Of a stretch of 64,000 nt of DNA, positions 1 through 28,702 are shown one piece after another (the first letter of the stretch is position 1; the number at the start of each line of letters is the position of its first letter). The notes beneath the pieces were generated by a model that was given only the letters and a program-made list of their open reading frames with translations, was not told the DNA's origin and ran no database searches. The translations under genes and the position numbers were made by a program. Source of the DNA: a virus; IMG/VR virus record IMGVR_UViG_3300032285_003393, positions 1 to 64,000 of that record. One strand, written 5' to 3'.

Positions 1-184
1 GCATTTTCTACACTAGAAAAGGCTCAAGCCTTTATCGCCAACAACGAGCATATAGCGGACATGCTTAGTGTGATTAGTATCACAGTAGATGAAGTCTAAA
101 AACACCCCAATTTGTCAGTCCCCCATGCTATAATTCCATTATAAAGAAAATCAAGAAAGTTTCTTGATAAAGAAAGGACATAAA

Positions 185-346
185 ATGTCACTAGTAAAAA
201 ATATAGTAGATGAACTACTAGCCGAATTCTCATGGCTAGATATCTCAGACTTAACAGATGAGATGATAGAAAACGCTTTCTATTGTGAGATAGACGGGCA
301 TTGGTCTACAGAGATAGACGGCTCGCTATGGTGTAATTGCGATTAA
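185..346 (+). CDS. small acidic early protein, hypothetical
   Basis: ORF track 164..346; ATG at 185 follows GAAAGGA RBS and the promoter at 113. Confidence 0.7.
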   Translation: MSLVKNIVDELLAEFSWLDISDLTDEMIENAFYCEIDGHWSTEIDGSLWCNCD

Positions 347-443
347 AGTAATTACAATTAAAAATTAAATAAAAATCCTGTGAGCCTTAGAAATAAGCAA
401 ATAATCAGGTCAACAAAAACTAACAAAAAGAAAGGTCGTCAAA

Positions 444-536
444 ATGACACTTGAAGAATATAAAGAAATGGTAGAGGCTCAACGTAAAGCCAGCCTTGCC
501 ACCGCCCTATCCCTACTAACAAAAGAGGTTAAGTAA
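444..536 (+). CDS. 30-aa peptide MTLEEYKEMVEAQRKAS..., paralog of 2767..2886
   Basis: hand-translated; GAAAGG RBS; similar to MNLDEYKAYVTEQRKKS. Confidence 0.6.
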   Translation: MTLEEYKEMVEAQRKASLATALSLLTKEVK

Positions 537-731
537 ATGAAATTAGATTTTGAACAGACTTTTGAATTAAAGCAAATTTTTGATGAGGCACTAGACGAAT
601 CATGGGATAGTGTCACTATTGCGGGAATGACTTTTTTCCCGTCACAAATTCTACGAGAGTGCGACCCGATTGCTTATCGTGTTGCCTTAGCAGATTTTGA
701 ATCCGATTATTTAGAAAGTTTGGAGAATTAA
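537..731 (+). CDS. conserved small phage protein (SQILRECDPIAYRV motif), hypothetical
   Basis: ORF track; abuts upstream stop; acidic. Confidence 0.75.
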   Translation: MKLDFEQTFELKQIFDEALDESWDSVTIAGMTFFPSQILRECDPIAYRVALADFESDYLESLEN

Positions 732-735
732 ATAA

Positions 736-852
736 ATGGAAAAAACAATTCAAGAATTAGAAAATTTAATTATTTACTATGGTGGAGATCATAACGCAAT
801 AATAGCAATTAAACAATGTATTGAAATTATCAAAAAGAATAAAGGAGAATAA
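736..852 (+). CDS. 38-aa hypothetical peptide
   Basis: hand-translated; GGAG RBS. Confidence 0.5.
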   Translation: MEKTIQELENLIIYYGGDHNAIIAIKQCIEIIKKNKGE

Positions 853-856
853 ATAA

Positions 857-958
857 ATGGAAAAAGATATTTTTGGTTTTGCTGATGCAATTCAAATTGA
901 TAACTTAAGCGATGAACAAATAAATATTTTAGAAAAAATATTTGAAGATTTTGAATAG
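857..958 (+). CDS. 33-aa acidic peptide MEKDIFGFADAIQIDNLSDEQ...
   Basis: hand-translated; AAGGAG RBS. Confidence 0.55.
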   Translation: MEKDIFGFADAIQIDNLSDEQINILEKIFEDFE

Positions 959-1239
959 CTGAGATCGGTAAGTTTTTATGCATGAGAGTGCATAAAAATT
1001 TGCTGCGCCCCGCACTCGGGCGTGTCGCCTACGATGTGGGCTAAATCACAAAGCCCACGCTCCATATATTGAGACTACTGGCGAGTATACTAGACAGTAG
1101 CGATTTTGTGTGTTATAATTCCATTATAGAAAATTAAATAAGAAAAAAAAGTTAGTTAATCAACGGCGTGTCGCCTTGATTTTTGGCAGAAAGTCTGCTA
1201 AACTAACGATAGTTAAACAATAAAGAAAGGTGGTCTCAA

Positions 1240-1431
1240 ATGACTACACTAAATAAAACAAATATCGGTCTTGCTCTTGGAATTTCAGGAGCATTAGAAA
1301 ATCGTATTCTTCACGATTGGAATAATGGTGGTGCTAAATCCACTTACGGCTTATCCGTATGGCAACGAAAAGTGTTGCTAAAAGTTCTTATTAGTGAAAA
1401 TCCTAAGTGTGAATGTGTGGTGTGTTTATAA
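1240..1431 (+). CDS. hypothetical early protein
   Basis: ORF track; GAAAGGTGG RBS. Confidence 0.7.
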   Translation: MTTLNKTNIGLALGISGALENRILHDWNNGGAKSTYGLSVWQRKVLLKVLISENPKCECVVCL

Positions 1432-1637
1432 TGGCTACAATTAAAATTGGTGGATTAGGGCAAGAAATTTCTTGCTATTGCCCCGTGTGTTCCGTAAAAA
1501 TGTCCCATATGTGTATCGCTACACTAGGGACAGGAAAAACAATTCGCTATGAATGGCAATGTAATTCTTGCGAACTCTCTCTCAAATCAGATAGATTTGG
1601 AAATGCTAAATTGCTTAAAGAAATGGAAGTGCTATAA
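1431..1637 (+). CDS. small Zn-ribbon protein (CPVC...CNSC)
   Basis: ORF track 1413..1637; TAATG coupling gives start 1431. Confidence 0.65.
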   Translation: MATIKIGGLGQEISCYCPVCSVKMSHMCIATLGTGKTIRYEWQCNSCELSLKSDRFGNAKLLKEMEVL

Positions 1638-1831
1638 TGGCAACTATGACAGATAGATATATTCCCTCTTGGGAAAAAAAGTATGACCCTTGGGATTTAG
1701 AACCCGATACAACTTTAGATTTTGGCTATGATGAAGATGAAGAATCTGAAAATGCTAAAAATGAAGATGAACTATCTCTAGAAAATCTAGCAGATGAAGA
1801 ATTAGAATTAGAAGAGGATTTTGACCTATGA
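1637..1831 (+). CDS. highly acidic small protein
   Basis: ORF track; D/E-rich; TAATG coupling. Confidence 0.7.
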   Translation: MATMTDRYIPSWEKKYDPWDLEPDTTLDFGYDEDEESENAKNEDELSLENLADEELELEEDFDL

Positions 1832-2124
1832 CAATGAATAGACTAATAACATCACTAGTACAGTTAATGCTTTGGCTCCCGATTTTTTATTTTATAAAAT
1901 TAGAAATAAAAAGTAGAAAACAAAAAAACAAAAGCTAGATCGTGTAAAACAAAATGGTTGACATTTCAACTATTTTGCTGCGCCGTTGTCGGGCGTGTCG
2001 CCTACGATGTGGCTTGAATCACATGTGACTAATCTCACAAAGTCCGAAATGTCCGATTTGTTACCACCAATTTGTCAGACCCCCCTGCTATAATGGTGGC
2101 ATATCAAAAAGAAAGGACAATAAA

Positions 2125-2445
2125 ATGTCATTAGAAATTTTTAGAATAAATGAAAATGGTGCTGGTTGGGTATCATTAGAAAATGCTACAATAGCAGAAA
2201 AATTAGAATTAGAATTAGCATTGGCGTTTAATGCTGAGATGAAAGTCTTGTGCGTTACTTGCCATATTGAAATTCCTGCTGGAACAGGAAATGCTTGTGC
2301 TAAGCATAGTTCATATCGTGTTTGCCAAATTTGCGAATTGCCTCACGATGGTTTGTATTGCTCAAATTGTTTTACTGGTGAACGAGTGCGAGTCGGTGCT
2401 CGTAAGTTTGCTAAAGTAATTCGCTTACAAGAAATTATAAAATGA
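2125..2445 (+). CDS. Cys-rich hypothetical protein
   Basis: ORF track; RBS; downstream of promoter 2073. Confidence 0.75.
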   Translation: MSLEIFRINENGAGWVSLENATIAEKLELELALAFNAEMKVLCVTCHIEIPAGTGNACAKHSSYRVCQICELPHDGLYCSNCFTGERVRVGARKFAKVIRLQEIIK

Positions 2446-2459
2446 AAGGACTAACTAAA

Positions 2460-2576
2460 ATGGTTACTGAAAAAGTAAAACGAGTTCAAGAGTTGCGTCG
2501 TAGTAATGCAGCAACTGCAATTCCGTCAAAGAAAAAATATTCACGAAAAAGAAAATATAAAAATAAATTTGATTAG
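2460..2576 (+). CDS. 38-aa basic peptide (KKKYSRKRKYK)
   Basis: hand-translated; GAAAGGA RBS. Confidence 0.6.
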   Translation: MVTEKVKRVQELRRSNAATAIPSKKKYSRKRKYKNKFD

Positions 2577-2766
2577 CTTGCAGATCGCAAAAAAAACTGC
2601 GCCCCGTTCGGGCGTGTCGTACACAGGATTATCCACAGGGTTACGAATGTGAGATTAATCACAGCATTTGAGCGTCTCAAAATATGGAATTACTCGCTAG
2701 TAAGTAGAAAAATGTCAGTGGGTTATGTTATACTTACGGCATAACGAAAAAGAAAGAAGGTCTTAA

Positions 2767-2886
2767 ATGAACCTAGATGAATATAAGGCGTATGTTACCG
2801 AACAACGCAAAAAGTCAATGGCGGAAGCAATGTCAGTGCTATCTGCTACAATTACAGACAATAAAGAAAAGGAAGGTGCTAACTAA
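2767..2886 (+). CDS. 39-aa peptide, paralog of 444..536
   Basis: hand-translated; AGAAGG RBS; contains promoter 2831. Confidence 0.6.
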   Translation: MNLDEYKAYVTEQRKKSMAEAMSVLSATITDNKEKEGAN

Positions 2887-3095
2887 TGGCAACTAAATTA
2901 TACACAATAGAGGATTTACTAATTGGTAAAACCTATCGTTCTCGTTCCCGATTTTTTGAGGGTGAAATTATCTCCGCTGAAAAGCGTGAAGGCGTTTGGT
3001 ATGGCGATAATACCGAAGCCTATCTAATCGGAATAAACTACAAGGGTAGTATCCGCACTAAGTATGCGACTATCGCAGTTAAGGTTGGTGAGTAA
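2886..3095 (+). CDS. hypothetical early protein
   Basis: ORF track; TAATG coupling. Confidence 0.75.
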   Translation: MATKLYTIEDLLIGKTYRSRSRFFEGEIISAEKREGVWYGDNTEAYLIGINYKGSIRTKYATIAVKVGE

Positions 3096-3259
3096 TGAAT
3101 ACAGCAAATGAAATTGTAGAAATACAAGGCGTGTGGTGCGATTCCTGCGATAGTGCAGGTTTCGTAATGCTACACGAAAATGGTGATACACAAGTCCTTG
3201 CGTGTAATTGCGAGGATAAAGAAAATGAATATTTATTTTTTGGAAAGGAAAACAACTAA
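3095..3259 (+). CDS. 54-aa Zn-binding-like peptide (CDSC...CNC)
   Basis: hand-translated; TAATG coupling on both sides. Confidence 0.6.
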   Translation: MNTANEIVEIQGVWCDSCDSAGFVMLHENGDTQVLACNCEDKENEYLFFGKENN

Positions 3260-3417
3260 TGAAAAAAAATGTGTTGATTAGTTTTGTAACGGAAGCAGAT
3301 ACGGATTTAGAAGCCGTATTTAATCTTAATAAAATTCTGTATAAATTGTCAGATGAGGAATTATCTCAATTTAATGCGTTTGATGTAACTAATGTAGAGG
3401 GTGGGTATCTAGACTAA
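3259..3417 (+). CDS. 52-aa hypothetical protein
   Basis: hand-translated; TAATG coupling. Confidence 0.6.
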   Translation: MKKNVLISFVTEADTDLEAVFNLNKILYKLSDEELSQFNAFDVTNVEGGYLD

Positions 3418-3611
3418 TGATGACTCGCAAAGACTACGTTGAAGTAGCACGAATTCTAAATACTTATATGAAACTAAATAATGACAATGAATATCCTGCA
3501 CTGGTAGATGAATTTGAAGTTCATTTAGTAGAACCATTCATTGAAATGTTTGAAAAAGATAATCCAAATTTTAATGCAGATAAATTTTGGGAAGCGTGTT
3601 TTAGCGAATAA
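3417..3611 (+). CDS. conserved small phage protein (MTRKDY...DNPNF..DKF..AC)
   Basis: ORF track; recognisable phage family motif. Confidence 0.75.
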   Translation: MMTRKDYVEVARILNTYMKLNNDNEYPALVDEFEVHLVEPFIEMFEKDNPNFNADKFWEACFSE

Positions 3612-3775
3612 AAAAAAGATTTGCAGTTTGAAAAAGCTGCAAATTTTTGGCGCAGCGATGTGATCTAGATCATGTTACGAATGTGATATTAATCACCGAA
3701 AATAATCCCTAATTAACTTGATAATGTCAGCAGGATATGTTATACTTCCATTATTCACCAAACGAAAGGGTCAAT

Positions 3776-3961
3776 ATGTCCACTCAAACAACACACGAAA
3801 TTGCTTGCGATTTATATGAAATCTGCGGTAGTACAATTCTAGTAGAATCTGATGAATTAGATTTCTATGATGGTTATATGTGCCCAGAATGCTATGACCA
3901 ATCTGAGGACTATATCTGGGATGATTCTTTCCCTATGTCTCTAGAGTATGATGAAGGGTGA
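3776..3961 (+). CDS. acidic Cys-containing hypothetical protein
   Basis: ORF track 3737..3961; start after GAAAGGG RBS. Confidence 0.65.
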   Translation: MSTQTTHEIACDLYEICGSTILVESDELDFYDGYMCPECYDQSEDYIWDDSFPMSLEYDEG

Positions 3962-4102
3962 TATTTATCACACCCGCCCTGCGCCCCGTTCGGGCGTGTC
4001 GTTACGAATGTGAGATTTATCACTGGAAAATAGGGGCTTTTGGATTGAAAATGTCAGTGCAACCTGCTATAATTCCCATATCACCAAACGAAAGGACAAC
4101 TT

Positions 4103-4252
4103 ATGTCATGCAATATTTGCTATGCTAATCTCATGGGTCTATCTATGATTGATTCCAACCCGTCTACTATGTGCGATACCCATTATTTTGAGTGGGCTCA
4201 GGAAAAAATCTATAATGATTTAGATATGTCTACTGAGGATATGTACCTCTAG
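4103..4252 (+). CDS. 49-aa hypothetical peptide
   Basis: hand-translated; GAAAGGA RBS after promoter 4052. Confidence 0.55.
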   Translation: MSCNICYANLMGLSMIDSNPSTMCDTHYFEWAQEKIYNDLDMSTEDMYL

Positions 4253-4306
4253 TCTGTCAGTCCTATCTGCTATAATTACAACTCTCAACCCGAAAGAAGG
4301 AAAAAT

Positions 4307-4588
4307 ATGTCCGATATTGTAACCGCAATTAGAATTCAACAAGCAACTTCCGAAAGTCTACACGATGAAACAGTTATGGATACTGCTCGTGCCTTAATGC
4401 TAACATTAACAGGTAATGAAATGCCTAGCGATGAAGCAATTCACGCACTCTTTACTTATTCCGCATTACTTTCTGCTAATGTCGCAACTCGTATCACAAG
4501 TGTGTTGCTAACCGAAAGTCAATTTGATTCTATGTGTCAAGAAATTCAAGAATTTGATGATATGGAAAAGGGCGTGTTAGGTGACTAA
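4307..4588 (+). CDS. hypothetical protein
   Basis: ORF track; RBS; promoter 4255. Confidence 0.75.
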   Translation: MSDIVTAIRIQQATSESLHDETVMDTARALMLTLTGNEMPSDEAIHALFTYSALLSANVATRITSVLLTESQFDSMCQEIQEFDDMEKGVLGD

Positions 4589-5303
4589 ATTAAAACGCTC
4601 AAACGATAGAAAAGTGGCTAATGCCGTTTCGCCTAATGGTAAAACGGCTACCATTGCCAACACTTTCGGTCTGCCTGCAGGTAAAAATTATTCATGTCCT
4701 GGAGCCACTGCAACATGCGAAAGTGTGTGTTATGCAGGAAAACTAGAAAAATTATTCAAGGGTGTTAAGGCTAACCTCTTACACAATTGGGAATTACTTA
4801 AAGACGCAGACTATGAAACTATGGTTACACTACTTAATGAAATGATTATTGATTTCAAAAAGGATTGTGCTAAGAAAGACGCTCCATTGCTATTCCGCAT
4901 TCATTGGGACGGCGATTTCTTTAACGATACTTATTCATATGCATGGAAGCAAGTAATCATGGACAATTCCACCGTTCAATTTTGGGTTTATACTCGTGTT
5001 AAGTCTGCTGCATTAATGCTTAAGGATATCCCTAATCTTTCACTATATTATTCTACGGATGATGATAACGCAAATGTCGGGGCGGAATTAAAAACTCTTC
5101 ATGGAATACGCCTAGCATACCTAGGGAAGACATTCACCGCAACCGAAAGCAAGATGAAAGAATTAACTGGCAAGGTTGGTGCTAAGTGTCCTGAAAACAA
5201 TAAGCAAATTCCATTAATTTCACAAAACGGCTCCGCCTGCGTCTCGTGTGGTTTATGCGTGTACGGTAAAGCGGACATTAGATTTTCTGCGACTAAAAAA
5301 TAA
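4581..5303 (+). CDS. GP88-family (radical-SAM-like Fe-S) phage protein
   Basis: CPGAT..C..VCYA, FRIHWDGDF, WVYTR and C-terminal C..C..C motifs. Confidence 0.8.
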   Translation: MTKLKRSNDRKVANAVSPNGKTATIANTFGLPAGKNYSCPGATATCESVCYAGKLEKLFKGVKANLLHNWELLKDADYETMVTLLNEMIIDFKKDCAKKDAPLLFRIHWDGDFFNDTYSYAWKQVIMDNSTVQFWVYTRVKSAALMLKDIPNLSLYYSTDDDNANVGAELKTLHGIRLAYLGKTFTATESKMKELTGKVGAKCPENNKQIPLISQNGSACVSCGLCVYGKADIRFSATKK

Positions 5304-5313
5304 AGGGGATGAA

Positions 5314-5517
5314 ATGCGAAAGATAAAAAACGGAAATATATTTACTGTCATGATTGCGGACCTACTGGACGTGACTGATGATGTAGCCTTGCGTGTACAC
5401 AATTACATAGATGAAAACTATAATTGTGATTGGTCTGAAGCTGATGAAGAAGAAATTAAATTTTATGCATTCATGGCATATGAAGATTTAAACGAAGAAG
5501 TTAATTCAAGCTTTTAG
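5314..5517 (+). CDS. acidic hypothetical protein
   Basis: ORF track 5248..5517; start after AAGGGG. Confidence 0.6.
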   Translation: MRKIKNGNIFTVMIADLLDVTDDVALRVHNYIDENYNCDWSEADEEEIKFYAFMAYEDLNEEVNSSF

Positions 5518-5747
5518 TGTGCGGGTGAGAGAGCGGGCCCAGGATCTGCAAAGGTCCTGGGCCTGTATAAAATTTAATATGTGTGCATAAGTATGCAGGC
5601 TGCGCCCCGTTCGGGCGTGTCGTTTACGAATGTGACTAAAGTCACCGAACTTTTTGTCTTACGATATGGGATATACGGCGTGTCGGATTGAAAATGTCGG
5701 TGGGATTTGCTATAATTGCTCCATTCACCCAACGAAAGGAAAACTAA

Positions 5748-6245
5748 ATGGGACTAGATATGTATCTCCACGCTAAGAAATATGTGGAAAAAGTTAATTG
5801 GAAAAAGTTACAGGAGAATGATGAATTATCTTATGATTCTCCCGAAGCAGTTTATCCAAAGTTTAATGAGTTAATAACTCTTACTAATATGAATAATGTC
5901 GCAACAGATATTTATGGTGCGAGTATTGAAGTTACTTGTGCATATTGGCGTAAGGCTAATCAAATTCATAAATGGTTTGTAGATAATGTACAAAATGGAG
6001 AAGATGATTGTGATTCTTATTATGTATCGCAAGATAAACTAAAGGAATTGCTTACTACTTGCCGTCAAGCATTATTTACTAAAGACCCTAATTTAATCCC
6101 GCCATCGGCAGGTTTCTTTTTTGGGTCATATGATATTGACGAGTATTATTGGAACGATATCAAAAACACAATTAAGCAAATTGACCGAATTCTTAATTTG
6201 CCCGAATTGTCCCAATTATCCTTTTCATACCAAAGTTCTTGGTAA
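5748..6245 (+). CDS. conserved phage protein (MGLDMYL...YWRKANQIHKWF)
   Basis: ORF track; recognisable family motif; promoter 5695. Confidence 0.85.
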   Translation: MGLDMYLHAKKYVEKVNWKKLQENDELSYDSPEAVYPKFNELITLTNMNNVATDIYGASIEVTCAYWRKANQIHKWFVDNVQNGEDDCDSYYVSQDKLKELLTTCRQALFTKDPNLIPPSAGFFFGSYDIDEYYWNDIKNTIKQIDRILNLPELSQLSFSYQSSW

Positions 6246-6318
6246 GACCCCTGCAGGGGGGAATTTGTCAGACCCCCCTGCTATAATAGGACACTCAACA
6301 ACCCGAAAGGAAAAAACA

Positions 6319-6570
6319 ATGCACAACCTAGATACTAATGGATGGAATGAATTTCCATTCTCCGCACAGGGCTACAATTTTATTTCTAAAGTTGCCCCTA
6401 ACTCTCCGTTTATGTCACAAATTGCTCGCCTGCCTAAAGGAATTTTTGAGCAAATGAATAAGTCTGCAATTGCAGATTTAGTAGGTACAGGACTTACTCG
6501 TGATGAAGTGTTAAATAAACTTTCATTCATAAATGAAGGTGGCACTCACGCAGTAGTTGAATTAGCCTAG
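6319..6570 (+). CDS. hypothetical protein
   Basis: ORF track 6121..6570; start after promoter 6266 and GAAAGGA. Confidence 0.7.
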   Translation: MHNLDTNGWNEFPFSAQGYNFISKVAPNSPFMSQIARLPKGIFEQMNKSAIADLVGTGLTRDEVLNKLSFINEGGTHAVVELA

Positions 6571-6639
6571 CAAATAGGGTAGGGCTGATAAATGTCAGCC
6601 CTACCTGCTACAATTACTCTCCCGACCAAAGAAAGGCAA

Positions 6640-6855
6640 ATGCCAATGGAATACAATTATGTCCTAACTACTCACTATGACGGAAATTATTATTCTTCGC
6701 ATAGATTTACAGATGCACTAACAGCCGTTAATGCGTTTAACAAATGCGTAGATTGGGGAGATGCGAAAGAATACGCAACCTATAATCTACTAGAACCTAA
6801 TGGAAAAATGCACACACTTAATTTTTATAGAAATGGAGAAGTAAATGGGAAGTAA
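6640..6855 (+). CDS. hypothetical protein
   Basis: ORF track 6592..6855; start after promoter 6593 and GAAAGG. Confidence 0.7.
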   Translation: MPMEYNYVLTTHYDGNYYSSHRFTDALTAVNAFNKCVDWGDAKEYATYNLLEPNGKMHTLNFYRNGEVNGK

Positions 6856-7129
6856 TTTTGCAACAGAATTAGCGGATAACGATTTATTCCCTGATTTAAC
6901 TATGGAAGATGCTATTGCAATACACTTGCAAGGTAATCACTATCCACCCGTCCCCCGTTCAATGGTAAAGCCTTGCATGGAAGCAATACAAAACTACAAC
7001 GAAGGGTATCACAACGAACCCGTAGAATTGCCCGAAGGCGTATCATGGCGTGGAGATACTATTGCTCCATCGTGGGCAATTATTGAATCACACCACTTAG
7101 AAGCTTGGCTAGACCAAGACGAATTCTAA
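6845..7129 (+). CDS. conserved phage protein (HLQGNHYPPVP)
   Basis: ORF track; GGAG RBS. Confidence 0.8.
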   Translation: MGSNFATELADNDLFPDLTMEDAIAIHLQGNHYPPVPRSMVKPCMEAIQNYNEGYHNEPVELPEGVSWRGDTIAPSWAIIESHHLEAWLDQDEF

Positions 7130-7269
7130 GATCAAGATTAGCTAAGTGTGACGAAGGTCACACTTAGTTTATCTCAAATACTGAGATAGGGTTGGACAAA
7201 TGTCAGACCCAAATGCTATAATAAGACCCTAGTTAGCAAGTTGCTAATTATTTAATGAAAGGAAGCAAA

Positions 7270-7431
7270 ATGACCGCAAACGGAAAGACTTATCAAGTAG
7301 GGGATTTATTCACTACACAGAAGTCAAAGGTTACAGGAACTATCAAGGAGATTGTTCCGCAAGCATCTGGCTCGGTGCGTGTTAAACTTGAAGTTGATGG
7401 CGAAAATCGCTGGACTACTTTCAAGGCATAA
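7270..7431 (+). CDS. 53-aa small beta-barrel (SH3/KOW-like) protein, paralog of 8043..8210
   Basis: hand-translated TYQVGDLFTTQKSKVTGTI; GAAAGGA RBS. Confidence 0.7.
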   Translation: MTANGKTYQVGDLFTTQKSKVTGTIKEIVPQASGSVRVKLEVDGENRWTTFKA

Positions 7432-7524
7432 CTAAATAGTTATTCAGGGCGGGTCTGATAAATGTCAGACCCCCCTGCTATAATTACTCTCTCAAACAAA
7501 CCCAAACCCGAAAGAAGGAAATAA

Positions 7525-7941
7525 ATGTCAAGAGCAATTACAGTAAAGGTGGCAACACCAAAAGTAATCAAGGCTTTGGAAACAAAGTTGGAAACAATCA
7601 AGAAGTCTTATTCTGAGCAATCAGCAAATGAAGCAAAGTATCAAGAGGCTCGCACCGCTTGGGCAAAGGAAATTGGCAAGTGGGCTATGGAACACTTCTC
7701 AAAGGCTGAAAACATCAGAACAAATTATCGCAGTTGGAACAACACTCTCAATGTTGATTTTGACATCATCACTAAAGAAACTGACTTTCCTGTTGAGCCT
7801 GTAAAGGACTACGAGGAAATTGGTGGATACCAATACAAGGAAATAGTAGAGGAACTTACTAACGCCCTATCTATCCTTCGTATGACAGATGAGGAAACAG
7901 TAAATGCTTCTACAATGAAGCAGATTGCTAAGTATCTCTAA
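7525..7941 (+). CDS. hypothetical protein
   Basis: ORF track; promoter 7463 and RBS. Confidence 0.85.
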   Translation: MSRAITVKVATPKVIKALETKLETIKKSYSEQSANEAKYQEARTAWAKEIGKWAMEHFSKAENIRTNYRSWNNTLNVDFDIITKETDFPVEPVKDYEEIGGYQYKEIVEELTNALSILRMTDEETVNASTMKQIAKYL

Positions 7942-7983
7942 GTTTCCTACACGCCCCTAATGGTGGGGCATACAGGAATAAAT

Positions 7984-8010
7984 GACCTGAGCAAGTCTAT
8001 AAACTGCTCA
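7984..8010 (+). ncRNA. candidate H-type pseudoknot element, copy 1
   Basis: GAC-CTGAGCAA-GTC-TATAAAC-TGCTC. Confidence 0.5.
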
Positions 8011-8042
8011 CACACAAAACCCGAAAGAATAGGAAAATATAA

Positions 8043-8210
8043 ATGACACTAGGCGGATACACTTACCAAATCGGTGATTTATTCACAACAAGCAAGACAG
8101 GCGTTACAGGCAGAATTGAAAAGTTTGTGCCACAATCTAAAAATGTAACTCGTGTTATGTTGCGTTTGGCAAATAACCAAACACGATTTGCAATGGTAAA
8201 AACATACTAG
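8043..8210 (+). CDS. 55-aa small beta-barrel protein, paralog of 7270..7431
   Basis: hand-translated TYQIGDLFTTSKTGVTGRI; AGGA RBS. Confidence 0.7.
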   Translation: MTLGGYTYQIGDLFTTSKTGVTGRIEKFVPQSKNVTRVMLRLANNQTRFAMVKTY

Positions 8211-8259
8211 AATTGCAAGAACCAAAAAATTGGATTTAATCCAAAATCTTGGTAGCAAT

Positions 8260-8287
8260 AATCCTGAGCATGATTCAAAACTGCTCA
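8260..8287 (+). ncRNA. candidate H-type pseudoknot element, copy 2
   Basis: AATC-CTGAGCAT-GATT-CAAAAC-TGCTC. Confidence 0.5.
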
Positions 8288-8551
8288 AGCTTTAAATCCC
8301 CGCAAATGCGGGGCGCAGCCTGTGATCTAAATCACCTTACGAAGGGTTGACAAAGCCCCTGAGTTTACGATATACTGGAAGGCTATGGAGACCCTACTTA
8401 TCGTGCCAATTGTGATTTTACTCACACCACCTCTAACCCTGCTTGGGTTATACTTATTTATTAAAACTATCCGTCTCAAATAGTGGACGGACTGGACAAA
8501 TGTCAGTGCAATCTGTTATACTTAGCCTTAATCTAATAGAAAGAAGGAAAT

Positions 8552-9583
8552 ATGTCAAATCTAGCACATGCTCGTGAAATTGAAGATAACTCAGTTTCAT
8601 TCGCATTCGTTGATTCCCGCTCCAATCCCGCTTGGCACTCTGCTGCTAATAAAGTTTGGAATTCTGATGAAGAGACTCCTACAATTTCACAAATTATGGA
8701 TTCTGCTCATCTATCTAATTGGAATTTGCGTTTGGAAGATGTCGCACCAGCGTTTCCAAATCATAATTTCATCTCTAATTCTCACCTTGTTGTTCGTGAT
8801 AATCCTTTCAATGCTGGAGAAACTGATGTTCTCTCTGTTGTAGGTTCACGCTATAAGGTCGTGCAGAATGAAGAATTGTTTGCGTTTGCACAAAATCTTC
8901 ATGATTCTAACCCTGATGTCAAAATTGACTCGGCTGGTTCTTTCAAGAATGGTCGTGTTGTGTTTGGTACATGGACAGTTCCAAATACTTTGATTCTTGA
9001 CCCTAATGGTGCTAATGACCAAACCAATCTATACCTAGTTGTTTATACTAGCCATGATGGTTCGGTTGCTGTTCAGGCTGCAATTACACCTGTTCGTGTT
9101 CGTTGCCAAAACACTCTAAACTTTGCAATGTCTCGTGCTAAGCAAAGTTTCAAGATTCGCCATACCGCTACGGCAGAAGGTAAAATTGCCTCTGCTCGTG
9201 AGGCTCTTGGTTTATCTGTTGCATACTTTGACGAGTTCTCAAAGCAGGCTAACGAGTTATTTACTCGTGAAGTTACTAATGCTGAGTTCTCTAAGATTAT
9301 CAACACACTCTATCCTAAGCCTGAATTGGATAAAAAGGGTTCTCTAACTAAATGGGAAAATAAAGTTGTATTGCTTGATGAGTTGTACCATAACTCACCT
9401 ACCAATGCAAATATCAAGGGTACTGCATGGGGCGTTGTAAATGCTCTAACCGAACGCCTTGATTATTTCCGCACTGCTCGCAAGGGTGGAGAATCACTTA
9501 CTTATTCTGCAAGTGGTTTTGACCCTGTGATTACCGCAGAAAAAAATAAAATTGTTAAGCAAGTGTTAGCACTTACCGCTTAA
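8552..9583 (+). CDS. DUF932 / TIGR03299 phage-plasmid protein
   Basis: PAWH, VVGSRYKVVQN, SHDGS, TPVRVRCQNTL, IRHT, GTAWG motifs. Confidence 0.9.
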   Translation: MSNLAHAREIEDNSVSFAFVDSRSNPAWHSAANKVWNSDEETPTISQIMDSAHLSNWNLRLEDVAPAFPNHNFISNSHLVVRDNPFNAGETDVLSVVGSRYKVVQNEELFAFAQNLHDSNPDVKIDSAGSFKNGRVVFGTWTVPNTLILDPNGANDQTNLYLVVYTSHDGSVAVQAAITPVRVRCQNTLNFAMSRAKQSFKIRHTATAEGKIASAREALGLSVAYFDEFSKQANELFTREVTNAEFSKIINTLYPKPELDKKGSLTKWENKVVLLDELYHNSPTNANIKGTAWGVVNALTERLDYFRTARKGGESLTYSASGFDPVITAEKNKIVKQVLALTA

Positions 9584-9586
9584 TAA

Positions 9587-9615
9587 TAATTCCTGAGCAT
9601 GAATTAAAACTGCTC
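9587..9615 (+). ncRNA. candidate H-type pseudoknot element, copy 3
   Basis: TAATTC-CTGAGCAT-GAATTA-AAAC-TGCTC, 5 nt before tRNA-Asp. Confidence 0.5.
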
Positions 9616-9620
9616 CGCAT

Positions 9621-9692
9621 GGAATCGTAGTTCAATGGTTAGAATGCAGGCTTGTCACGCCTGAGACGAGAGTTCAATTCTCTTCGGTTCCG
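9621..9692 (+). tRNA. tRNA-Asp(GTC)
   Basis: cloverleaf GGAATCG/CGGTTCC; anticodon arm CAGGC-TTGTCAC-GCCTG; TTCAA T-loop. Confidence 0.9.
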
Positions 9693-10020
9693 CTTTATTT
9701 TTATCCCATTGTTTTATGTTATTGCAATTGGCACATAAAATTTGATAACCATTTGGCAAATCTTGTTTAATTAAATATCTGTAAAATTTTACACCTGAAA
9801 ATTTTTGACCACCTAATTCTTTTCTTTCTTGTGATCCATTGTCTTCTATGTGATCAAGCTGCAAAGCTCTTATATCGTCAAAACCACATATAGCACACTC
9901 TTTGCCATAACGTTCTAGAATGATTTGCTTATCTTGCATTCTTCTAGCTGTTGTATCTGCTCTTAGCTTCTCCCGATTTTTTTCACGATATCTTGCTTGA
10001 GCTTCTTTTTTATTATTCAT
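9655..10020 (-). CDS. HNH endonuclease
   Basis: CAICG...LQLDH...LCANCN; leaderless -10 upstream. Confidence 0.85.
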   Translation of the reverse strand: MNNKKEAQARYREKNREKLRADTTARRMQDKQIILERYGKECAICGFDDIRALQLDHIEDNGSQERKELGGQKFSGVKFYRYLIKQDLPNGYQILCANCNNIKQWDKNKAEPKRIELSSQA

Positions 10021-10198
10021 ATATAAATTGTATCACTGGGGTGCAACAATGCATAAATAAACGGGGCGCAGATATGATCAATATCACAATTACGATAGGG
10101 GTATATTTCCCCTGAAATTGGAATTACGATTGGACAAATGTCAGTCGGGCATGCTATAATTTACCCATATTATCCCTACCACTAGAAAGTAATCATAT

Positions 10199-10624
10199 AT
10201 GTCTAATAGAACTAAAGGTTATATGGGCCAAATTGTAGATGGCAAGAAGCTTGCTGAATTGGCCAATAAAATATATTCAATTCAATATAATGATAATGCC
10301 ACTAAATGCACAGTAGATAATTTGTTATTTATTGAATTAAATGAAAAGAACGTATTTGGGGATTCTAAGTATGCTCTTGTATGTTCTGAAGGTGTAGGTT
10401 GGGAACAAGATGAATATGGATGTCTTGAAGTCCCCACAAATGTTGGACAAATGGGTTTATGGAATGGGCATGTATTTATTTCAGTAGATGTCGTAAAGTC
10501 TTGTTTAACTGATCAATATGAAGATATCTCTGACTATATTCGTGTCTTTGGTTCCCGCCTTGATTCTAATTGTTGGTTGTGGCAGAACAAAATGTCAGTG
10601 GCATCTGCTACAATATCCCTCTAA
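10199..10624 (+). CDS. hypothetical protein
   Basis: ORF track; promoter 10139. Confidence 0.8.
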   Translation: MSNRTKGYMGQIVDGKKLAELANKIYSIQYNDNATKCTVDNLLFIELNEKNVFGDSKYALVCSEGVGWEQDEYGCLEVPTNVGQMGLWNGHVFISVDVVKSCLTDQYEDISDYIRVFGSRLDSNCWLWQNKMSVASATISL

Positions 10625-10641
10625 TAACGAAAGGATATAAA

Positions 10642-11427
10642 ATGCCAAATTGGGTATATAATACCTTGACAATTCAAGGTCCAAAAGATGAAATAGATAT
10701 GATTAAAGATAGACTGAATAAGCCTTTTACATTAGCACAAGAGACTTATGGTATGGGTGATATTAGTTCTATGGGTTTCCCCACCAAAATTAAAGAAGTA
10801 ACTTATTCTAATCCTGTCTTTGCTTTCTTCAACATTCATTCATATAAAGATGACGGCATTACTGATGAGGAATATGCCTGCCAGCCAACACGTTCAGGTG
10901 CAGACATGAAAGACCCTAATTGGTTTGCACAAGAGGTAGCACATGCCAAGACACAGAAGGATTGGTATTCTTGGAACAATTCTAATTGGGGAACCAAATG
11001 GGATGTTGCTGTTTCAGATGATGACAAATATCCAAATACAGAATTGCTTGAATATAAATCAGAAGGTGATGACAACTGGGTTGTATATAAATATGAAACT
11101 GCTTGGTCGCCTGCCGTAACTGTTTTAACTAAACTAAGTAATCTTGTTCCTAATTGTGTGCTTACTTTAGAGTTTGAAGAAGAAACAGGTTGGGGTGGGG
11201 AATATGAGATTGTTCGTGGTAATGTAACAGAATTAGTTGAATATGATAATCAATGCAGAGATTGTGATTCATATAATACATTAGATTACTGCGAAAATGA
11301 ATGTGGTGAAATCTGTAGTAACTGCAATTGGCTTGGCGAGGCAGACCTAGAAGCAGTGGCAGAATGTCAGACCCATAGTGTATACTTGGACACCAAAGTC
11401 CCTGAATATAGAAAGTTGGAAGCATGA
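10642..11427 (+). CDS. DUF1281/YubB-like ferredoxin-fold protein with C-terminal Cys cluster
   Basis: MPNW..NTL, WYSWN..NWGTKWD, ETAWSP motifs; start after GAAAGGA. Confidence 0.8.
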   Translation: MPNWVYNTLTIQGPKDEIDMIKDRLNKPFTLAQETYGMGDISSMGFPTKIKEVTYSNPVFAFFNIHSYKDDGITDEEYACQPTRSGADMKDPNWFAQEVAHAKTQKDWYSWNNSNWGTKWDVAVSDDDKYPNTELLEYKSEGDDNWVVYKYETAWSPAVTVLTKLSNLVPNCVLTLEFEEETGWGGEYEIVRGNVTELVEYDNQCRDCDSYNTLDYCENECGEICSNCNWLGEADLEAVAECQTHSVYLDTKVPEYRKLEA

Positions 11428-11705
11428 TAGAGCAAGCAAGTAAGTTGCCTGATAATGTCCAGCGTCTTGTAGACGCTGGTGTTAAAGGTATTGATGTAAT
11501 GCATGGTCAATTAAAGATTGATATGCTAGAAGCAGAAATTGAATATACTAAGTCTGTAGAGATTGAAGAGGAAAATGATTATTCTGACGCAATGGAATCT
11601 ATGGATAGAAAGTATAATGAAGGCTTTCTAGACGCTTTGACATATTGCTATAAATTGACATATGACATTTCATTTGCTGAATCTATAAAGGAAGCGGGGG
11701 AATAA
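11424..11705 (+). CDS. acidic hypothetical protein
   Basis: ORF track; ATGA coupling. Confidence 0.75.
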   Translation: MIEQASKLPDNVQRLVDAGVKGIDVMHGQLKIDMLEAEIEYTKSVEIEEENDYSDAMESMDRKYNEGFLDALTYCYKLTYDISFAESIKEAGE

Positions 11706-12334
11706 TGGATCTGCTAAGCTGGACTAAATATACATATGTATGTGACCCTGATGAATGTGATTCTCTAATTGAGTATACATGTTCAGATAAGTTTGGATTC
11801 CCGTCTGGAAGTGTGACTAACATCACATGCCCGTGTGGTCGGAAACCCAACCTTTTGTCAGTGGAAGATGCTACAATTACACCTATTAACCAACCCGAAC
11901 AGAAAGAAGAAAAAATGGAAACAATGTACAACTCAATCCAGCAGGAACTTGACTTGACTAACGGTAACGAAATTACTGAACTCAAGAATAAGTTGTCTGC
12001 ATCAGAAAATCTAGTAGAGAGATATCGTGATATGGTTTCAAGTGCTAATTCGCAACTTGGAAAAATCATTGATAATCTTACAGAAGATTATTGGTATTCA
12101 TCATCAGTTGATAAGTCTGAGATTTTAACTGAACTCTGCGACATCCTTGAACATAATCCAGTTAAAGAGATTTCTTTCACTGCGACTATTTCCTTTAATG
12201 GTCGTCTAGAGATTCCATTGGATGAGGCAGAAGACTTTGACCTTACCGCCGTCCTTGAAGATGCTTATGTAGATATCAACAACGGCAATGTCGTTATTGA
12301 TGGCTATGAACTCTATGATGCAGAGGAGTGCTAA
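11705..12334 (+). CDS. hypothetical protein with N-terminal Zn motif; possible internal start at 11915
   Basis: ORF track; internal promoter 11856 and purine-rich RBS. Confidence 0.75.
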   Translation: MDLLSWTKYTYVCDPDECDSLIEYTCSDKFGFPSGSVTNITCPCGRKPNLLSVEDATITPINQPEQKEEKMETMYNSIQQELDLTNGNEITELKNKLSASENLVERYRDMVSSANSQLGKIIDNLTEDYWYSSSVDKSEILTELCDILEHNPVKEISFTATISFNGRLEIPLDEAEDFDLTAVLEDAYVDINNGNVVIDGYELYDAEEC

Positions 12335-12534
12335 TGATAGTAACTGTTGATGCAGGTACAAATAGAATTAGAGGGGCTGTTATCTTCGCTGCATGGAAAC
12401 ATGGGGTGGAGATAGAGCCTCTCGTAAATAACCAGTTAGAGATTTGGTCAGGACGGGAAGATAAGATTGATATGCTACTTAAAGACTTCCCTTCTGTTAA
12501 AGTCTTACACCGTGAACTATTCAAGGAAGTATAA
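12328..12534 (+). CDS. hypothetical protein
   Basis: ORF track; coupled to neighbours. Confidence 0.6.
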   Translation: MLMIVTVDAGTNRIRGAVIFAAWKHGVEIEPLVNNQLEIWSGREDKIDMLLKDFPSVKVLHRELFKEV

Positions 12535-12707
12535 TGGACAAAGCTAAAGCGATCATTGAATATATGAATATACATCTAATTAGTTTGGAGCAGGATTTGG
12601 AACAAATTGATTATGTAAATGCTCATCATTTTTATAAGGTCAAGCAAGCAGAAATTGAGAATACCAAGCATTTAATGTCAGTGGTAGAGGATATAATGGC
12701 CTCATGA
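12534..12707 (+). CDS. 57-aa hypothetical protein
   Basis: hand-translated; TAATG/ATGA coupling; contains promoter 12676. Confidence 0.6.
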   Translation: MDKAKAIIEYMNIHLISLEQDLEQIDYVNAHHFYKVKQAEIENTKHLMSVVEDIMAS

Positions 12708-12913
12708 ATACACCATTAGAGATATTAGAGATAGATTATTCAGTCAGCCCAGGTGGAGTTAATTCATTTGAAGTATATGATGTGGAGAATGACTTTTTCT
12801 CCCCACCCATTTACGAAACAGAGGATTTGACGGATGCCGTTCAGTTCTGCTATAATTTGGGAATTAACTTTACCGTCCGAACACTAGCACGATGGAATAG
12901 AGAGAATATCTAA
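12704..12913 (+). CDS. hypothetical protein
   Basis: ORF track. Confidence 0.7.
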   Translation: MNTPLEILEIDYSVSPGGVNSFEVYDVENDFFSPPIYETEDLTDAVQFCYNLGINFTVRTLARWNRENI

Positions 12914-22627: not shown

Positions 22628-22897
22628 TTAATCAGGAAGACCTTTCGGTGTGGAGACATATTTGATCCCTTCTATTTCGCACGGTACTCCATAAGACATA
22701 ATCAAATTTCTACATAATAGAAGATAGTCCATGATATCTACTCTTCTATCAACTTCATACTGCATGATATTTTCTTCATAAACAGTTAAAGCTAAGTAAT
22801 TTGGCCTTGCCCTAATATCTAGTTTGAAATCTTTTACAGGCTTTTTTATCTCTCTTATCTTTTTAGCCATCTCTAAGTTATAAAAAATTTTTGCCAT
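22628..22897 (-). CDS. hypothetical protein
   Basis: ORF track. Confidence 0.75.
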   Translation of the reverse strand: MAKIFYNLEMAKKIREIKKPVKDFKLDIRARPNYLALTVYEENIMQYEVDRRVDIMDYLLLCRNLIMSYGVPCEIEGIKYVSTPKGLPD

Positions 22898-23198
22898 GTA
22901 TTTTCCTCAACTTCGCCCACGTTTCTTTATCTTTGTGGGAATTATTTAATTTATCCGTGCGACCTATGTTAAGGTAGATTCCTCCCCATACGCCTCTCTC
23001 TTTGTCCTTTACACCTTCTTTATAGCACATCTTGACAACTGGGCATGATAAACAAACTTGATCTGTAGTATTTGCCAAGATCTTATCGTTTTCATAGTCA
23101 TCATAAAACCAGTTTATAGGCATGTTTTGACATGCTGCTAGATGATACCATTTGACATCTTCTTCATCAATCCCTAGGTGTTTAAGTATGTTTGACAT
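22878..23198 (-). CDS. whiB: WhiB-family Fe-S transcription factor
   Basis: W...AAC...C..CPV...C...GVWGG. Confidence 0.9.
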   Translation of the reverse strand: MSNILKHLGIDEEDVKWYHLAACQNMPINWFYDDYENDKILANTTDQVCLSCPVVKMCYKEGVKDKERGVWGGIYLNIGRTDKLNNSHKDKETWAKLRKIHGKNFL

Positions 23199-27504: not shown

Positions 27505-27554
27505 TTAATTTCTCCTTTTAAGGTATTCCCTTTACTTATATTATACAGTAATTG

Positions 27555-27636
27555 TGCCCATAATCAGACTTGAACTGATACGATTTTATTCGGAAGATTT
27601 TAAGTCTTCTGTGTCTGCCGATTCCACCATACGGGC
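27555..27636 (-). tRNA. tRNA-Leu(TAA)
   Basis: GCCCGTA stem; GAAGA-CTTAAAA-TCTTC; long variable arm. Confidence 0.9.
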
Positions 27637-27637
27637 G

Positions 27638-27709
27638 TGTCCCCAGCAAGGATTGCACTTGCGACCCAATGGTTAAAAGCCATTTGCTCTACTTCTGAGC
27701 TATAGGGAC
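27638..27709 (-). tRNA. tRNA-Lys(TTT)
   Basis: AATGG-CTTTTAA-CCATT; atypical T-loop TGCAATC. Confidence 0.85.
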
Positions 27710-27719
27710 TTGCATATTG

Positions 27720-27790
27720 CTCTCTCGTCTAGATTTGAACTAAAACTAGAGGATTCAAAGTCCCCTGTGCTGCCATTACACCACGAGAGA
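27720..27790 (-). tRNA. tRNA-Gln(TTG)
   Basis: GGGGA-CTTTGAA-TCCTC. Confidence 0.9.
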
Positions 27791-27794
27791 ATAG

Positions 27795-27870
27795 CCTCCG
27801 TGACAGGGGTTGAACCTGCATGTATCCATTAACCTTTCAAGTGGGTAGAAACCACAGGGTATACACGGAG
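27795..27870 (-). tRNA. atypical D-arm-less tRNA-like RNA (TCT in loop, Arg-like)
   Basis: CTCCGTG/CACGGAG acceptor stem; GCAGG-TTCAACC-CCTGT T-arm; GTGG-TTTCTAC-CCAC; no D-arm. Confidence 0.6.
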
Positions 27871-27874
27871 AAAA

Positions 27875-28192
27875 TTATTTTATAAAAGATTTATATCTTT
27901 TAAAATTTCCTCTTTCCATTGTTCTTATTTTATGACAATTTGAACAAACTATCTCACATTTATTAATTTCTGACAAAATTAATACCCAAGATCTAGTACT
28001 CCCAGAAATTGCTTTTGCTATTTCAAATTTTTTTTCATACTGCGGTAAATGATCAAACTCTAAAACTCTTGGATCTTTGAGATTGCAATCAGTGCAACAT
28101 TTATCAGACAGATATTCCCAAAGATTATTATGGTTTCTATCTCTAATCTTTTGCTGACTTTTATACAGATCTTCTTTATTTTTATAAGGCAT
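27875..28192 (-). CDS. HNH endonuclease inside the tRNA array
   Basis: C.DC...LEFDH...KCEIVCSNCH. Confidence 0.85.
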   Translation of the reverse strand: MPYKNKEDLYKSQQKIRDRNHNNLWEYLSDKCCTDCNLKDPRVLEFDHLPQYEKKFEIAKAISGSTRSWVLILSEINKCEIVCSNCHKIRTMERGNFKRYKSFIK

Positions 28193-28233
28193 AAGGTTAG
28201 TATACCATATTCTAACCCTAAATCATTTTATAG

Positions 28234-28320
28234 CGGAAGATACAGGATTTGAACCTGTGGTAAGTTTTACCCTACGATCAGTTAGCAACCGATTGCTTTA
28301 AGCCACTCAGCCAATCTTCC
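28234..28320 (-). tRNA. tRNA-Ser(GCT)
   Basis: ATCGG-TTGCTAA-CTGAT; long variable arm. Confidence 0.9.
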
Positions 28321-28321
28321 A

Positions 28322-28396
28322 TGGAGCCTCGTATCCGATTTGAACGGATGACCCTCGCTTTACAAGAGCGATGCTCTACCACTGAGCTAACAAGGC
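28322..28396 (-). tRNA. tRNA-Thr(TGT)
   Basis: TCGCT-CTTGTAA-AGCGA; encoded CCA. Confidence 0.92.
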
Positions 28397-28397
28397 T

Positions 28398-28471
28398 TGG
28401 AGCGGATGATGGGAATTGAACCCACCCCTTCTGCTTGGAAGGCAGAGGCACTACCAATATGCAACATCCGC
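28398..28471 (-). tRNA. tRNA-Gly(TCC)
   Basis: TCTGC-CTTCCAA-GCAGA; encoded CCA. Confidence 0.92.
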
Positions 28472-28475
28472 ATTG

Positions 28476-28547
28476 CACCCCCAGAGAGAATTGAACTCTC
28501 TTCAACAAGATGAAAGCCTGTTATCCTAACCAATAGACGATGGGGGC
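28476..28547 (-). tRNA. tRNA-Glu(TTC)
   Basis: ACAGG-CTTTCAT-CTTGT. Confidence 0.9.
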
Positions 28548-28551
28548 ATAG

Positions 28552-28626
28552 TCCGACAGGCTGGATTTGAACCAGCGATACATACCTTATAAGAGTACTT
28601 CCAAAACCAAGCTAGGATACTGTCGG
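28552..28626 (-). tRNA. tRNA-Ile(TAT)
   Basis: CCGACAG/CTGTCGG stem; GTACT-CTTATAA-GGTAT. Confidence 0.8.
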
Positions 28627-28630
28627 TTAG

Positions 28631-28702
28631 CTCTCCTACCAAGATTTGAACTTAGAATAAGCGATTAACAGTCGCTTGTGTTGCCGATTACACCATAGGA
28701 GA
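28631..28702 (-). tRNA. tRNA-Asn(GTT)
   Basis: AGCGA-CTGTTAA-TCGCT. Confidence 0.9.

Follow-up and report, generated by a model that had tools for sequence, protein, structure and literature searches.

The DNA analysed here, referred to as the window, is the first 64 kb of the IMG/VR virus record IMGVR_UViG_3300032285_003393, a phage genome of 101,703 bp with a guanine-plus-cytosine (GC) content of 36%. A + strand arm of small genes runs from ~97.3 kb, through the end junction, to ~15 kb; the other 82 kb are transcribed leftward. The genome ends overlap by 122 bp (window 1-122 = genome 101582-101703), and IMG/VR classes them as direct terminal repeats. In the + arm, most open reading frames (ORFs) have no family match and no DNA-binding family was recognised among the proteins. 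Only a GP88-family protein, a DUF932 protein and an Api92-like protein with a ferredoxin-like domain (DUF1281_C) were annotated. The subject of this analysis is a set of promoters in this arm, in which a TGTCAG box stands at a fixed distance from the -10 element, as in promoters of the actinobacterial DNA-damage regulator PafBC.

The pattern TGTCRG-N10-TAnnnT was searched, and the expectation was taken from 100 dinucleotide shuffles. Nineteen matches were found on the + strand in 113-12697, against 0.89 expected (largest shuffle value, 4); the - strand has none in the whole 101.7-kb genome. The initial annotation had given 17 copies on the + strand, with none in the minus arm. All 17 are present and the strand bias extends over the whole genome, but the count was too low, the additional copies being those at 1987 and 11365. 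The whole-genome scan gave two further matches, at 100489 and 101474. The match at 101474 is a second copy of the promoter at 113, which is repeated together with its Crp-type box in the 122-bp end overlap, so that 21 matches represent 20 unique copies. The gap is fixed at 10 nucleotides (nt), with 21 matches at this spacing versus 0-2 at the others between 6 and 14. The extended -10 TG is found in 17/20 unique copies, and these have a near-consensus -10. The -35-like hexamers, which had been noticed for several copies, amount to a 5/6 match to TTGACA at 17-18 nt in 7/20. The canonical sigma-A -35/-10 arrangement does not describe this class: the -35 hexamer is missing in 13/20 copies and shows no conservation in relatives. 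A GAAAGGA-type ribosome site and a start codon follow 18 copies at 25-47 nt, in line with the earlier statement that most are followed by a ribosome-binding site and an ORF. The copy at 12676 is leaderless, and that at 100489 has a long leader. No LexA boxes were found in the phage. The best explanation of these sequences is a class of about 20 real promoters serving the small-gene + arm (Table 1), and these small genes are probably expressed early. The spacers seem to fall into two subclasses, TGG/TGC and A/T-CCCC. The copies at 2073, 6266 and 7463 are identical over a 22-nt core with ACCCCCC in the spacer, a form that recurs in distant relatives.

Table 1. Promoters, Crp-type palindromes and the WhiB gene of the window
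Feature	Position	Strand	Remark
PafBC-type promoter (-26 box, 10-nt gap, extended -10)	113..134	+	duplicate at genome 101474
Doubtful copy: TGTCGG, weak -10, no extended -10	1987..2008	+	86 nt upstream of 2073 promoter
PafBC-type promoter, no -35	2073..2094	+	ORF 2125-2445
PafBC-type promoter	2713..2734	+	ORF 2767-2886
PafBC-type promoter, no -35	2831..2852	+	ORF 2886-3095
PafBC-type promoter, -35-like TTGATA at 17 nt	3725..3746	+	ORF 3776-3961
PafBC-type promoter, -35-like TTGAAA	4052..4073	+	ORF 4103-4252
PafBC-type promoter, no -35	4255..4276	+	ORF 4307-4588, then GP88-family gene 4581-5303
PafBC-type promoter, TGTCGG variant, -35-like TTGAAA	5695..5716	+	ORF 5748-6245
PafBC-type promoter, no -35	6266..6287	+	ORF 6319-6570
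PafBC-type promoter	6593..6614	+	ORF 6640-6855
PafBC-type promoter, -35-like TGGACA at 18 nt	7201..7222	+	ORF 7270-7431
PafBC-type promoter	7463..7484	+	ORF 7525-7941
PafBC-type promoter, -35-like TGGACA	8501..8522	+	DUF932 gene 8552-9583
PafBC-type promoter, -35-like TGGACA	10139..10160	+	ORF 10199-10624
PafBC-type promoter	10593..10614	+	Api92-like (DUF1281_C) gene 10642-11427
PafBC-type promoter without extended -10, within 3' end of preceding gene	11365..11386	+	ORF 11424-11705; absent from initial annotation
PafBC-type promoter, no -35	11856..11877	+	ORF 11915-12334
PafBC-type promoter, leaderless (start codon 6 nt past -10)	12676..12697	+	ORF 12704-12913
Perfect Crp-type palindrome	69..84		start 44 nt before box 113
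Two adjacent Crp-type palindromes: 2008 (one mismatch), 2024 (perfect)	2008..2039		65 and 49 nt before box 2073
Perfect Crp-type palindrome	2648..2663		65 nt before box 2713
Crp-type palindrome, one mismatch	3682..3697		43 nt before box 3725
Two Crp-type palindromes: 3957, 4009 (one mismatch each)	3957..4024		95 and 43 nt before box 4052
Crp-type palindrome, one mismatch	5631..5646		64 nt before box 5695
Perfect Crp-type palindrome	7147..7162		54 nt before box 7201
Two Crp-type palindromes: 8321 (one mismatch), 8411 (perfect)	8321..8426		180 and 90 nt before box 8501
Crp-type palindrome, one mismatch	10073..10088		66 nt before box 10139
Perfect Crp-type palindrome	11812..11827		44 nt before box 11856
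WhiB gene	22878..23198	-	actinobacterial-host marker; separate from promoters

The minus arm (window 15000-64000, and on to genome 97400) has promoters of another kind. There are 32 extended -10 promoters (TGnTAYAMT) on its coding strand versus 2 on the other strand. None of the 32 carries the TGTCAG box, which argues that the box marks a separate regulatory class and is dispensable for basal recognition. In 10/32 of these promoters the start codon lies 5-8 nt past the -10 (leaderless type); leaderless starts are frequent in actinobacteria. Many minus-arm promoters are preceded by terminator-like hairpins. At the far end of the + arm, the sites at 12848 and 14697 (+) have an extended -10 with a canonical TTGAC -35 and no TGTCAG box.

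The published in vivo PafBC motif is tGTCgg(N10)tA(N3)T, a -26 element without a -35; PafB contacts -23 to -28, with R46 and R50 reading the two guanines of the GTC triplet, and the PafBC complex works with the housekeeping sigma factor (PMC8635444). Setting the -10 at -12 to -7 places the phage box at -28 to -23. The phage sites show every sequence feature of a PafBC promoter, namely TGTCRG with an invariant GTC (21/21 matches), a 10-nt gap and no conserved -35. The resemblance pointed out in the initial annotation is borne out in sequence, spacing and position, and the hexamer varies only at the R position. Compared with PafBC-dependent promoters of Mycobacterium and other actinobacteria (RecA-NDp, recA P1-type), the phage sites share the TGTCRG at about -26, the 10-nt gap to TAnnnT, the lack of a conserved -35, the invariant GTC and last G, the A or G at position 5, and some leaderless starts. 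However, the phage has ~20 of them per genome in one arm, with a near-perfect extended -10, whereas the -10s of the host promoters are weak. The phage sites also differ in that LexA boxes are missing, the TGTCRG is preceded by an A-rich run, and many are accompanied by a phased Crp-type site.

To collect relatives, IMG/VR was scanned for exact matches to a single promoter form, and at least 119 loci matched. Among the matches listed, the loci are low in GC (35-41%) and carry up to 18 loose-pattern copies on one strand in ~13 kb, and the DnaE of the long contigs is 52-72% identical to that of the phage. Five such relatives contain 8-19 copies each, clustered in ~8-12 kb, nearly all on one strand with few divergent. 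The retention of the copies at this level of DnaE identity argues for selection on the element. Across 725 unique copies from relatives, again among the matches listed, the -35 positions hold at most 0.2 bits of information, an A-rich run lies 5' of the box, and the extended -10 G is found in 82%. The hexamer varies at position 5 (R) only, with A in 88% and G in 12%. Because the fixed columns of the 725-copy set are imposed by the search pattern, a second test was anchored on extended -10 sites only. Among 415 such sites in the motif-dense arms of 85 related loci, TGTCAG (275) or TGTCGG (57) stands at the exact position in 332. The commonest other hexamers are AGTCGA and AGTCAA, in which the GTC core is kept. 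Since nothing is conserved upstream of the box, the reading of TGTCAG as a reverse-complemented -35 of a divergent promoter was ruled out.

A scan with the TGTCGG form returned the same low-GC group, plus one contig of 45% GC. Some sublineages have mostly TGTCGG rather than TGTCAG (loci L249, L296, L297, L275 and L277). The multi-copy locus L299 has 45% GC and may indicate a different host within the group. The nearest cultured kin of the phage DnaE (54-56% identity) and WhiB (~50%) are large lytic Streptomyces phages of the Stanwilliamsviridae. Three of them, BillNye, Blueeyedbeauty and Peebs, hold 0, 0 and 6 scattered motif copies, respectively, which argues that the trait follows the low-GC lake group rather than the wider phage family. 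These phages resemble the present one as large lytic actinophages with related DnaE and WhiB; they differ by the missing cluster, a higher GC content and soil Streptomyces hosts.

The phage encodes DnaE, DnaB, DnaG and RecA, and its WhiB matches the family above the Pfam cut-off. In papers on freshwater actinophages, whiB serves as a marker of actinobacterial hosts, and low phage GC is tied to Nanopelagicales, with ~42% GC (PMC6802176, PMC10202952). The WhiB homologues found are all on phage-sized metagenomic contigs of up to ~114 kb; none was found in host genome contigs. No near-identical DNA exists in the phage collection, and the phage sugar dehydratase gave no host clue (Protein Atlas). 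A mycobacterial host, as implied by the initial annotation, is out of keeping with a lake phage of 36% GC; at this GC content the phage is not a mycobacteriophage. WhiB, the leaderless-type promoters, the GC content and the kinship to Streptomyces phages together point to a low-GC freshwater actinobacterium, with acI (Nanopelagicales) as the best candidate. We infer that this uncultured phage is a lytic phage of low-GC lake actinobacteria.

Candidate hosts were represented by 62 genomes retrieved by the acI 16S probe target, nearly all Nanopelagicaceae, Planktophila and uncultured actinobacteria. Two adjacent WYL genes are present in 5/5 complete acI genomes examined. The best solved-structure matches of the pair are M. 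smegmatis PafB (7p5x chain AY, E 8e-34) and PafC (7p5x chain AX, E 9e-27). The next gene after the acI pafB-pafC pair is tatC, and the paf-tat neighbourhood is also known in mycobacteria. The PafB helix RMFERDK, including R46 and R50, is identical in acI and M. smegmatis. The presence of pafBC in the host, which had been left for confirmation, holds for the candidate lineage, where the DNA-reading residues are intact; the host itself is assigned indirectly.

The box pattern is not enriched genome-wide in acI, where total counts equal the control. The box lies ~245 nt upstream of the RecA domain in 4/4 genomes, and before recA in 18/30 Nanopelagicales genomes. The recA form is mostly TGTCAGTG...TGCTAnnnT, and a LexA box follows directly. 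Dual control by PafBC and LexA is familiar from the recA gene of M. tuberculosis. Among the 30 recA loci (L193-L222), 12 lack the exact box, and three of these 12 keep TGTCCT with the same gap. In acI the box is also found upstream of carD, a LysM chiZ-like gene, a DUF6504 gene and a leaderless peptidase gene. LexA boxes occur at three of four sites (recA, chiZ-like and DUF6504). The orthologous host box sites are conserved between acI genomes. As judged from these genomes, the candidate lineage has both the regulator and the box found in the phage, down to the A at position 5 and the extended -10. Host sites also show TGTCAG followed by T or A and then CCCC.

Phased boxes of a second kind, absent from the initial annotation, lie upstream of about half the phage promoters. 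Crp-type palindromes were defined as TGTGA-N6-TCACA, perfect or with one mismatch. The genome has 20, of which 17 are in the + arm (8 perfect versus 0.1 expected). Among the matches listed for the relatives, a Crp-type box accompanies 402/744 promoters. The distances to the -26 box peak at 34, 43-44, 54, 64-65 and 75-76 nt in these relatives, in steps of about one helical turn. A Crp-family protein of ~230 aa (open frames 230-261 aa) is found in five acI genomes, and none is found in the phage. The arrangement looks like class I-type activation by host Crp at candidate sites, although a phage dimer may read the palindromes in its place. It shares with class I CRP-dependent promoters and actinobacterial Crp/GlxR sites the upstream TGTGA-N6-TCACA and the distance steps of ~10 bp, with a Crp available in acI. 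However, the phage sites are paired with a -26 box rather than a -35. Compared with E. coli CRP positions, the phage centres are ~3 bp further upstream, if the transcript starts 7 nt past the -10.

These comparisons suggest, with somewhat better than even confidence, that the box is read by host PafBC. The host housekeeping RNA polymerase would recognise the near-consensus extended -10, and the invariant TGTCAG at about -28 to -23 would substitute for the -35. Host PafBC, bound to single-stranded DNA (ssDNA), would read the box via 'sigma adaptation' as in mycobacteria. At about half the promoters, the Crp-type palindrome, placed whole helical turns upstream, would add a further input. The + arm would be tied in this way to two host regulators, and might be boosted by ssDNA of whatever origin, be it ultraviolet (UV) damage, the degradation of host DNA or the replication of the phage. 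Because the gap is constant to the base pair, the box is better understood as being recognised inside the polymerase complex than as an operator standing by itself.

Several points weigh against the assignment to PafBC, which draws on sequence comparison. The perfect extended -10, together with the -35-like hexamer in 7/20 copies, could give PafBC-independent promoters; since the extended -10 is strong and near-consensus, the promoters may fire without PafBC. The dependence of PafBC on ssDNA would sit badly with immediate-early expression, except in a host damaged beforehand. The three cultured Streptomyces relatives have no cluster, though PafBC-type regulation exists in their hosts. The host is a candidate drawn from the four markers given above, which connect it with the phage indirectly. 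Moreover, the reader of a 6-bp box could be a small protein of the phage that escaped recognition.

This last point leads to the strongest competing explanation, in which TGTCAG is read by a factor outside the known families, encoded by the phage or brought in with the virion and acting either as a class-specific activator or as a repressor that shuts off the arm, and the PafBC likeness is convergence or coincidence. The + arm ORFs without a family match, which are the majority, could supply such a factor. The box is also confined to one promoter class, the other arm having promoters with the extended -10 only, comparable to phage temporal programmes such as that of the T4 MotA boxes, and its absence as a cluster from the three Streptomyces phages would be in keeping with a factor of this kind. 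A phage-encoded sigma factor or activator had been named at the outset as the counter-case. However, no WYL or sigma-70 region 2 match was found in the phage or 11 relatives, and no region 4 match in the phage. The first promoters to fire must rely on host proteins alone. In addition, the host recA, carD and chiZ-like genes share the box, the gap and the extended -10, and an exactly constant gap is not something that a repressor would require. We regard a phage factor as unlikely.

It is less probable still that no extra factor is involved, and that the sites are strong extended -10 sigma-A promoters in which TGTCAG is a spacer element touched by the polymerase or by a general factor, for example CarD or RbpA. 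The TGn with a near-consensus -10 in 17/20 copies would be in keeping with such promoters, and the extended -10 alone serves about 30 in the minus arm. However, the box would then be expected at the 32 minus-arm promoters and is found at none, and its sequence and position are those of the PafB contact site. Least probable is that the sites are mainly decoys, 20 in each genome and more as the phage replicates, which would sequester PafBC and weaken the response of the host to damage, the driving of phage genes being secondary. In favour, acI genomes have only a handful of plausible PafBC sites (recA, carD and a few others) versus 20 per phage genome. However, every box has a gene behind it and keeps the same distance to a strong -10, a working-promoter layout that a decoy does not need.

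With host PafBC as the preferred reader, the closest phage analogue is the T4 middle promoter (MotA box plus AsiA, sigma appropriation). In both systems the -35 is replaced by a box nearer the -10, and a protein sits, or in the lake phage would sit, between the DNA and sigma region 4. However, T4 brings its own MotA and AsiA, whereas nothing comparable was recognised in the lake phage, which seems to rely on an activator of the host. No publication on PafBC-type promoters in phages was found in the literature search, in agreement with the initial annotation, which knew of none; a full-text search for the hexamer gave unrelated papers only. To our knowledge, PafBC sigma adaptation, described in 2021, has been reported for host DNA-damage genes only. 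A study by Rafique et al. (2025), cited in PMC12848934, reportedly deals with pafBC and mycobacteriophage resistance.

We tentatively propose, at slightly less than even confidence, a broader scenario. In a family of abundant lake phages, expression of the small-gene arm might have come to depend on PafBC, the ssDNA sensor of the host, and to some extent also on Crp, which would make this the first case of sigma adaptation being used by a virus. Host DNA damage or physiological state (surface-water UV, replication intermediates) would gate or amplify the takeover genes, with competition for PafBC against the host repair regulon. If so, viruses exploit sigma adaptation at ~20 promoters per genome, in widespread phages of the most abundant freshwater bacteria. 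Hundreds of natural sequence variants would then define what PafBC reads, and gene expression of lake phages would be linked to host DNA damage, for example by sunlight. A direct test is within reach, as M. smegmatis and acI have identical PafB recognition helices and acI strains are now culturable.

Two further observations concern the host candidates and the phage arm. In the acI genome G004 (L234), at ~822.7-825.4 kb, six PafBC-type boxes lie in 2.6 kb, including two back-to-back pairs and mostly leaderless. They adjoin an Rce1-like/CPBP protease gene and unannotated ORFs, and the cluster is possibly a damage-inducible island. Kinship of this island with the phage was ruled out, the two having no common protein. 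The phage has 10 tRNAs. A lone tRNA-Asp (9621-9693, +) lies in the small-gene arm 3' of the DUF932 gene, and the other nine are clustered at 27554-28702 (-).

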